NCBI RefSeq assembly: GCF_041886205.1
Contig: NZ_CP169029.1
DNA from: Escherichia coli
GTDB taxonomy: Bacteria; Pseudomonadota; Gammaproteobacteria; Enterobacterales; Enterobacteriaceae
Direction: 5' to 3' (one strand)
Length of the DNA: 64,000 nt
Of the stretch, positions 17,101-20,100 are shown one piece after another (position 1 is the first letter of the stretch; every line of letters begins with the position of its first letter). The position numbers are program-made.

Positions 17101-20100
17101 ATGCCATTCGCCAAGTGATCTTGATATATTAATACACCTTCCACCGTAATATTAACATGACCACTAATATCCACCGTGTTATTTTCACCACTGATCACGC
17201 CGCCGCTTATCGGAGTGATTTGTGCATCAGCGTTATCGCCGAGACTGGAATTAATATTAATGCTTCCGTCAACGCTAATATGGCTGTCATTACCCGTCAG
17301 GCTGAAACCTGTAGCACCCGGCGCATTGCCTTCGCTATCTGGTTGCTGGAATACGTTAATATCTCCGCTTAATTCAACCTGCTCACGGTCACCCACAATG
17401 GATACCCCAGTTCCGTATCGCGAAACATCAATTTCGCCCACGTTACCAAAAACTTCATCATCACCATCTATCAGAACTCCCACAGAACCGGAATCCGTAA
17501 CAACAATCTTGCCTTTATTACTTATCTGCGAGTTATTACCGGCGATATAAATACCCGTTGCCCCTCCGCTGACGTAGAGGTCACCTTCCTGGCTAATTGT
17601 TGCATTGTGCCCAGCAACTTTTGTCCCTACCGCATTCTCACCGTCAACCGTCATATCCCCGGCGATATTCATCTCATTGCCATCGCCAGTGATGGTTATA
17701 CCGGTGGCATTCTCACCCAAAATATTAAGATCATAGGTCGCCAGGGTAATACTATTGTTGTCGCCGATAATCTCCATGCCGGTTGTATCGTCTTTAACCA
17801 ACATCGAGCCAGCAAGCGAAATACTGCTGCTGTCCCCGGTGATTTTTACACCAGTACCGTTATTTGTCGTGGTGATGTCCCCCACATTGACAAAGGTAGT
17901 ATTATCACCATTGATTAACACGCCATAGGGGTTTCCATCACCGTCCGCCTGACCAACATTGATATCACCAATGTTCATAAAGGTTGTCTGATCGCCATCC
18001 AGCAACACACCGATGGAACTGTCATCCACCACAGTAATATTACCTTTATTACTGATGACAGTACCCTTACCCTCGGCGTCAATACCGTGTGCGCCACCGC
18101 TGACGTATAAGTCACCCTGCTGCCTTACAATGGCATCTTCGCCGATAATTTTTGACCCCGTTGAATTTGCACCATCAACGGTCATGTCGCCTTTGATTTC
18201 AACGCGGGCATCATCCCCTGTAATCACACTCCCCGTGCCTCCATTCGCGATTTCAACATCACCAACGGTGTCCAGCGTGGTACGATCGCCATTAACAATA
18301 ACTGCCGCCCCACCATCAACTTCCGTCTCACCATTATTAGTAATGGTGATATCATCACCGGTAAGAATACCTACCACCGAACCTTCACCAATCGCGGTAG
18401 TTTTGCCATCGTTGTTCAGGGTGATGTCGTTACCGTCAACGTTTATCACAACGCCGCCATTCAGCGCGATGTTGCCGCCATGGTCGGTAATAGTGGCATC
18501 GTTAATATGGAAATGTTCGCCAGTTGTACCGTCTGCGGTGGTGAGTGACTCTATGATTATTTCGATTTTTCCCGCTTCGTCATAGCGCCAGGTGGAGGTT
18601 CCGCCAGGATTGACGCCATTGAACGAAGCCGTGTTAGCCGCCTCGTCGACTAACCAATCCTTCACGATTGTGGTAGTGCCGCCAGGTCCGGTAAGCGTAT
18701 AGCTGCCATCGTCATTTTTGGTGTAGGTAAAGGTGGTATCACGTAATTTTAGGGTCTTCGCGTCCTGATCCCAGGTGACATCGTTTTTATAGACCACAGG
18801 ATCGTGTTTGACTGGCGTGTCATCGCCACCGTCGTCCGGGGTATCATCGCCGCCATCATCCGGCGGGACAGGTGTGTCGCCGCCATCATCCGGCACCGGA
18901 GACGGATCGTCATGATGATTATTATTATCGTGGAGTGCATATACTGCGACGCCTGTGACTGCCGCTGCCAGCCCCACTGCAGCCCAGGGTAATAACTCAT
19001 TATCTTCAACTGATTTACACTCTGCCGGCAGCTTTTCTAGCTGTTCTTTACTTAGTGATTTAATATTAGCCGGGCAGCTAATCTTGCTGGATTTACGAGA
19101 TTCATCCGATGTTTCCGCTATCGACGTATCTGCCGCCCATGTCTGACTGCTTAACGCCATTGCAACACAGACACTGAGCAATTTTTTCCTTTGCATATGA
19201 AATTCCTCATAAATAGATGATTACGCAGCCCAGATAAACTGCACAGGGTTAAATAGTTACAAATATTCGAAATCTGGATATTGTTTTTAACAGAATAAAT
19301 ATATTGATTTAGCGAATGCATTTATTCATTAAGTCAATACATCTTTTCTTTAATTTATATTTTTAACGCATTTATTTCAACTTAAAATATGACGCAATTG
19401 AGATTAAATCCGATAACACTGATGAATTAAATAATGCAATTAATTCATGAAATAAATAAATTATCATGTGAATGAAGCATTCATCATCGGCATCTATATG
19501 AAATTAAATGAAAAATAATTCTCAATAGCATTGCAGTTAATATTGAATATTTCAGGAGGTACAACCAGGCAGATTTTTCTCGACGAATACCGACTTATTA
19601 TTTTTGCAACCACATTCCGTTTATCCCGCGAATGTATTCTCCCGGCTTAGCTTTTGCTACCAGTTTCTGCCCCGCCAATTTTTCCACTTCCGCAACCGGC
19701 AGATTATTTTTCATGGCGAGTTGTTGATAGCTCTTATTACGCGATTCATTAATCCTTTTGACTAACATCTGTGTTTCGGTATCCGCCTTTAATGCAACCA
19801 GATAACCATTATACGTTTCGCCAACACGCCCCTGAGTTCGAGCGTCATCCAGCGTCAGAGCCATCGCACTGGTGCTAAATAAGGCATTAATGACAAAACA
19901 CAGTATTAAACTTCTCTTCATCATCGCCTCAGAAAAGATCGCTACGAGTTTCAAGCAGCTCTTCGACATCTTTGTCTGCCTTGATGATGATCTCATGCTC
20001 AATTTTAACGTTCATATTGATAGTGATCGGTTCCTTAGGTGCAGCGACTTCAATGCGAGGCGTACAGCCAACCAGCATAAAAGATGACGTCAACGCAGCC

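Follow-up and report, generated by a model that had tools for sequence, protein, structure and literature searches.

AIDA-I and Ag43 have a 19-amino-acid (aa) consensus repeat in their passengers. The passenger of Salmonella BigA, the counterpart of Escherichia coli YdbA, is AIDA-I-like, and replicated passenger segments have been described in large autotransporters (Celik et al. 2012, PMC3419190). In E. coli MG1655, insertion sequences interrupt ydbA, which is a pseudogene there (PMC4951805). Our literature search found no study of the repeats of ydbA. Here we analyzed the ydbA/BigA-type gene in a stretch of 64,000 nucleotides (nt) of E. coli (contig NZ_CP169029.1 of assembly GCF_041886205.1; hereafter, the window), whose passenger region contains two similar blocks. 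We concluded that the two blocks are very probably the remaining core of an ancient duplication that arose in frame within a beta-helix passenger. Internal duplication of blocks of helix rungs is well known as the standard route by which autotransporter beta-helix passengers grow, and the feature is of an already known kind.

The upstream copy in the protein was termed block B and the downstream copy block A; the gene runs on the minus strand, and the coordinates are collected in Table 1. When the coding sequence (CDS) was compared with itself by blastn, one off-diagonal match was obtained, between 17991-18191 and 17460-17660 (66% identity over 203 nt, E = 3e-8). At the protein level, blastp with 60-aa tiles aligned aa 321-416 with aa 498-593 at 54-57% identity and an offset of 177 aa, with E values of 1e-19 to 1e-20 per tile. 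Tiles were used instead of the whole protein, for which self-blastp returned the identity match only. In an ungapped diagonal scan with BLOSUM62, the 177-aa diagonal scored 285 and the runner-up 124, and local alignment of the two copies scored 319 (z = 24 against 300 shuffles). Three motifs, GDMTVDG, GDL[YF]VSGGA.GI and SNKG.I.V.D, each occurred exactly twice in the 1961 aa of the protein, 177 aa apart: at aa 336, 361 (as GDLYVSGGA.GI) and 382 in block B, and at aa 513, 538 and 559 in block A. The copy number of the block in the window allele was two. A sequence-only reading of the window had regarded segments 17563-17690 and 18097-18225 as homologous in both DNA and protein; the blastn match and the shuffle test bear this out, and the origin by internal duplication that it implied is right.

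The same reading had placed the period at about 534 bp, which needs correction. For segment 17563-17690, identity was 62.5% at an offset of 531 nt versus 28.9% at 534 nt, and 336 further in-frame offsets gave a background of 30.7 +/- 4.3%, with a maximum of 47.7%. Alignment by MAFFT at the 534-535 nt register needed a 4-nt gap to reach the true register of 531. The distance from block A to block B is exactly 531 nt, that is, 177 aa or seven rungs. The description as long direct repeats overstates the similarity of the two copies in DNA. Between 12000 and 21000, neither Tandem Repeats Finder nor a seed-based repeat finder detected the 531-nt pair, which is too diverged for both, and no Tandem Repeats Finder array was found at 17150-18300 (threshold about 70% identity).

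The relation of the two blocks to the fold was read from an AlphaFold2 model of aa 215-720 (mean predicted local distance difference test score 88.4, predicted template modelling score 0.88). The model had rungs of 24-25 aa whose strands repeated as 6-4-4 residues, and the passenger is predicted to be a right-handed parallel beta-helix. Long strands started at model residues 107, 132, 156, 181, 210, 234, 258 and 284; therefore, 177 aa corresponds to exactly seven rungs, including one loop insertion of about 5 aa. Weaker off-diagonal matches of the blastp tiles appeared at offsets of approximately 25, 50, 75, 99, 124 and 148 aa. These multiples of about 25 aa, together with the modelled rungs, agree with the earlier description of the passenger as made of shorter degenerate repeats. 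In a Foldseek search against the PDB, the top matches were all beta-helix proteins, Ag43 passengers first, but they were weak (best E = 1.3e-3, template modelling score about 0.2) and were used for assignment of the fold class, not of homology. The duplicated core comprised four rungs, with identity per rung of 38-60% in aa and 49-67% in nt, and the neighbouring rungs on either side were at background identity.

Over the two copies, identity was 48-60% in protein and 54-66% in DNA (54% across the 360-nt block, rising to 65% in the best 200 nt). By codon position, in-register identity was 58, 67 and 37% for the first, second and third positions, respectively. Silent sites, at 37%, were near random, and therefore the similarity is carried at the protein level; the three values fit protein-level conservation with saturated silent sites. 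RecA-dependent exchange drops by orders of magnitude at a few per cent divergence through mismatch repair. Homologous recombination in E. coli reportedly requires roughly 23-30 nt of perfect identity, as Shen and Huang are said to have found in 1986. The longest exact run common to the two copies was 11 nt, in or out of register, so the pair has neither an uninterrupted identity of about 23-30 nt nor a high overall identity. With 35-45% divergence and an 11-nt longest exact run, blocks A and B would therefore not be a substrate for RecA-mediated recombination, as judged from their sequences. At this divergence reads map uniquely, and assembly collapse of the 531-nt pair, which had also been suggested, is therefore impossible.

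We compared the window gene with the same allele in other genomes. Among 5426 complete E. coli genomes, six matched the gene at 99.9% identity over 80% or more of its length, and the passenger allele of the window is rare. In these six genomes, the 5496 nt downstream of a tandem tract near the N-terminus, with both copies inside, were equal in length to the window sequence, with 0-5 substitutions and zero indels, and no copy-number polymorphism of the 531-nt unit was seen. From this collinearity it follows that the 531-nt duplication is stable in the allele. With low identity between the copies and no length polymorphism attributable to them, the proposal of RecA-mediated expansion and contraction between the two fails on the sequence-only reading's own terms.

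The CDS nevertheless varied in length within the same allele: 5886 nt in the window, and 6036, 6066, 6066, 6156, 6186 and 6186 nt in the six genomes. All these differences mapped to the number of in-frame 30-nt units encoding PPDDGGDTPV in the N-terminal tract, which was 90 nt long in the window and 240, 270, 270, 360, 390 and 390 nt long in the others. No exact direct repeat in the CDS was longer than one of 18 nt within this tract (cds positions 303 and 333), and the tract behaves as an in-frame short tandem repeat of variable number. The window tract was the shortest of the seven sequences, and its 90 nt represent either a true contraction or a collapsed assembly. Comparison of ydbA lengths across E. 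coli, a check that had been recommended, thus found lengths that vary, with a cause other than the 531-nt pair. The expectation of a length-variable surface protein was right in that the 30-nt tract and, in another allele class described below, a longer array change in length, but not with regard to the 531-nt pair.

In two more distant alleles, those of GF4-3 and EE72d, both blocks were retained, 177 and 175 aa apart, respectively, and in the O157:H7 allele block B was present and block A was not recognisable. Recognisable copies of the block therefore differ between deep allele classes, with one in O157:H7 and two in the window allele. Block B of the window was 94.6% identical to block B of GF4-3, 62.5% to that of EE72d and 64.6% to that of O157, versus 47.6% to block A of the window itself; block A of the window was 51% identical to block A of EE72d. 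Orthologous blocks are closer than paralogous ones, indicating that the duplication is older than the split of these allele classes.

In the UTI89-type allele (8316 nt), a homologous block occurred about nine times at a spacing of 147 or 98 aa. At the DNA level, this allele contained an array of 147-nt units in 21.3 copies, organized in 441-nt super-units that were 94% identical over 3.8 copies, and Tandem Repeats Finder reported the 441-nt period with scores of 2140-2998. In two related strains the array counted 18.3 and approximately 14 such 147-nt units, and the CDS measured 7728 and 7185 nt, respectively. The 147/441-nt array of the UTI89-type alleles is truly recombination-prone. Amplification and contraction of rung blocks is a real and ongoing process in this gene family, of which the window allele retains only a decayed relic.

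These results suggest the following history. In a solenoid passenger of about 25-aa rungs, a block of rungs would have been copied to a place seven rungs further downstream (177 aa, 531 nt), after which both copies would have diverged to about 50-60% protein identity while synonymous sites became saturated. The remaining similarity would be held by protein-level constraint on the fold. In the window allele, the duplication is now a fixed and stable part of the stalk rather than a recombination substrate. The allele changes its length today as 30-nt units are added to or lost from the N-terminal Pro/Asp/Gly-rich tract, presumably because replication slips or because near-identical units exchange unequally. 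Amplification of rung blocks is still active in the UTI89-type class, in which the units are still highly alike.

Several points weigh against this history. The recognisable duplication covers only four of the seven rungs, and it could have originated either as a seven-rung copy of which three rungs have decayed or as a four-rung block copied with other rungs in between. The duplication was dated among alleles of E. coli only. Selection on the retained similarity would be read from identities by codon position, and slippage at the 30-nt tract from the pattern of variation.

That the copies are an active recombination substrate, with RecA-mediated unequal exchange making the allele length-variable, would be compatible with two direct, in-frame copies 531 nt apart, with a gene that as a whole varies in length among strains, and with the changing copy number of homologous blocks in the UTI89-type alleles. 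It is contradicted by the absence of indels across the 5496 nt that hold both copies in the six genomes, whose length differences all fall in the 30-nt tract. The shortness of the exact runs, the low DNA identity, and the retention of both copies in GF4-3 and EE72d at nearly the same offset also speak against it, and we consider such exchange extremely unlikely. A consensus common to every beta-helix rung might imitate a duplication without any specific event wherever the offset is a multiple of the rung period, since the passenger is periodic at about 25 aa throughout, many diagonals carry weak matches, and three of the seven rungs of the 177-aa unit are at background identity. However, no other diagonal, other multiples of the rung period included, exceeded 124 in the scan, the three rung-specific motifs occur only as pairs 177 aa apart, and the DNA match is significant by itself, which leaves a mere shared consensus very improbable. 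An assembly artefact, by which collapsed repeats would have produced the repeat region or the gene length seen in the window, would account for a 30-nt tract of 90 nt where the other six sequences have 240-390 nt, because short-read assembly can collapse units of 30 nt that are nearly the same. For the 531-nt copies, such an artefact is opposed by unique read mapping and by six independent complete genomes that are collinear with the region base for base. In the 30-nt tract, an unbroken frame between identical flanks makes a true short allele just as possible. Taken as a whole, an artefact seems improbable to us.

It may also be asked whether the blocks have been kept alike beyond the constraint of the fold, because each carries the same functional surface, for example a patch for ligand binding or self-association. 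The confinement of similarity to four rungs with neighbours decayed to background, the conservation of first and second codon positions over saturated silent sites, and the (weak) structural resemblance to Ag43 self-association passengers would all suit this explanation. However, block A is not recognisable in the O157:H7 allele, and repeated inactivation of the gene (in two of the six same-allele genomes, as a split gene in O157, and as a pseudogene in MG1655) argues against strong selection. We regard a retained functional surface as doubtful. In a more specific form, the four-rung block, present twice in the window allele and amplified to about nine copies in UTI89-type alleles, would be a candidate functional module of the YdbA/BigA stalk, acting for example as a binding or self-association patch; for a gene that is often inactivated, this is a speculative suggestion with little chance of being right. 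If it were true, the copy number of the block would set avidity, and E. coli lineages would tune the adhesin on two time scales, the number of modules slowly and the length of the 30-nt Pro-rich spacer quickly. An ancient in-frame duplication, retained as part of the stalk, is the explanation we prefer over all of these.

Table 1. Features of the ydbA/BigA-type gene; positions are those of the window and residues those of the encoded protein
Feature	Residues (aa)	Position	Strand	Evidence
ydbA/BigA-type type Va autotransporter CDS, intact	1-1961	13311..19196	-	1961 aa; open reading frame (ORF) call and translation
Putative Sec signal peptide, MQRKKLLSVCVAMALSSQTWA/AD	1-21	19134..19196	-	Read from translation
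In-frame tandem tract of 30-nt units (PPDDGGDTPV), real length-variable element	101-130	18807..18896	-	Allele comparison
BigA_N beta-barrel domain	134-213	18558..18797	-	Pfam PF25784, E = 1.3e-25, 89.8 bits, cut-off 24.5
Passenger stretch modelled as three-stranded right-handed beta-helix	215-720	17037..18554	-	AlphaFold2
Block B, upstream copy of the duplicated four-rung core	321-416	17949..18236	-	Self-blastn, tiled blastp, diagonal scan
Block A, downstream copy of the duplicated four-rung core	498-593	17418..17705	-	Self-blastn, tiled blastp, diagonal scan, register test
BigA_beta sandwich domain	1530-1613	14358..14609	-	Pfam PF25783, E = 3.8e-23, 81.5 bits, cut-off 24.3
C-terminal autotransporter beta-barrel	1734-1932	13401..13997	-	Pfam PF03797, E = 1.7e-19, 71 bits, cut-off 26

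The 1961-aa frame of the window gene contained no internal stops in translation. The gene is flanked by ydbH-ynbE-ydbL upstream and pdxI downstream, which is the position of ydbA in annotated E. coli genomes. From this position and from the presence of BigA_N, BigA_beta and PF03797, we concluded that it is an intact type Va autotransporter gene of the ydbA/BigA type. When all 1961 aa were submitted to Pfam, PF03797 was missed; it was obtained when the last 362 aa (window 13311-14399) were scanned alone, which is a warning for automated annotation of long repetitive proteins. A phmmer search of the barrel against PDB sequences gave nothing useful. The NCBIfam model auto_BigA (NF033178) scored 1329 bits against a cut-off of 3400, with the alignment limited to aa 424-1961; the window protein is related to BigA but does not count as BigA by the strict standard of this model.

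The gene is a mosaic. Its 3' 2.1 kb (cds 3733-5886, window 13311-15464) was 91.8% identical to K-12-type ydbA, and K-12-type genomes matched this part only, while the 5' 3.7 kb encoding the passenger (window 15465-19196) had no megablast match in most E. coli. Only 8 of the 5426 complete genomes matched window 17300-18400 over at least 80%. Passenger allele classes were about 40% apart at the protein level, far above the core-genome divergence of the species.

At the N-terminus, the putative signal peptide combines a basic n-region and a hydrophobic core with a site resembling A-x-A. The peak of hydrophobicity over 19 aa in the protein (Kyte-Doolittle 1.77) lies in LLPWAAVGLAAAVTGVAVYAL (aa 68-88; window 18933-18995, minus strand), after this apparently cleavable signal peptide, and the segment is kept in the O157, EE72d and UTI89-type alleles. 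If this stretch forms a transmembrane-like helix, such a helix would be odd N-terminally in a type Va passenger. On the plus strand, antisense ORFs at 17176-17550, 17607-17918 and 18013-18585 were regarded as incidental to the coding strand.

In two of the six same-allele genomes, ydbA contained internal stops, at codon 1449 in wlxctx60 and at codon 779 in 6EVA, and in O157:H7 PA20 it was split into two ORFs. Such repeated inactivation suggests that selection on ydbA is weak or intermittent. Many ydbA autotransporter genes, those of the UTI89-type alleles included, are named 'EntS/YbdA MFS transporter' in RefSeq, which looks like an annotation error arising from the likeness of the names ydbA and ybdA.

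The duplication is old and inert and carries little weight for biology, and the 531-nt pair should be discounted as a cause of variable length or of faulty assembly. In typing and assembly of ydbA, the elements to watch are the 30-nt tract at 18807-18896 and, in B2-type strains, the 147/441-nt array, both of which truly vary and could collapse in short-read assemblies.

Compared with known systems, the window gene is closest to ydbA of E. coli and bigA of Salmonella (NF033178), which it resembles in its locus, in both BigA-specific Pfam domains and in the 91.8% identity of its C-terminal 2.1 kb to K-12 ydbA. Unlike the MG1655 pseudogene it is intact and carries a rare passenger allele, and unlike BigA in the strict sense its protein stays far below the NF033178 cut-off. 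With the passengers of AIDA-I-type proteins and Ag43, the latter being the top Foldseek matches, it would share a right-handed three-stranded beta-helix of short degenerate repeats, according to the model. It differs from them in its rungs of 24-25 aa, in the weakness of the structural matches and in the additional BigA_N and BigA_beta domains. The arrays of UTI89-type ydbA lie in the same gene and locus, and their blocks are homologous to both window blocks (44-48% aa identity to each) and include the rung G(D/E)L.VSGG.HGID. Those alleles, however, have 14-21 units of 147 nt in super-units up to 94% identical, variable between strains, whereas the window has two stable copies with 54-66% identity in DNA. 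The PPDDGGDTPV tract, for its part, is like the in-frame short tandem repeats of bacterial surface proteins (contingency-type Pro-rich spacers) in that it changes by whole units and in frame. This likeness applies to 18807-18896 and not to the 531-nt pair, and, unlike on/off contingency repeats, the 30-nt tract changes the length of the protein without shifting its frame.
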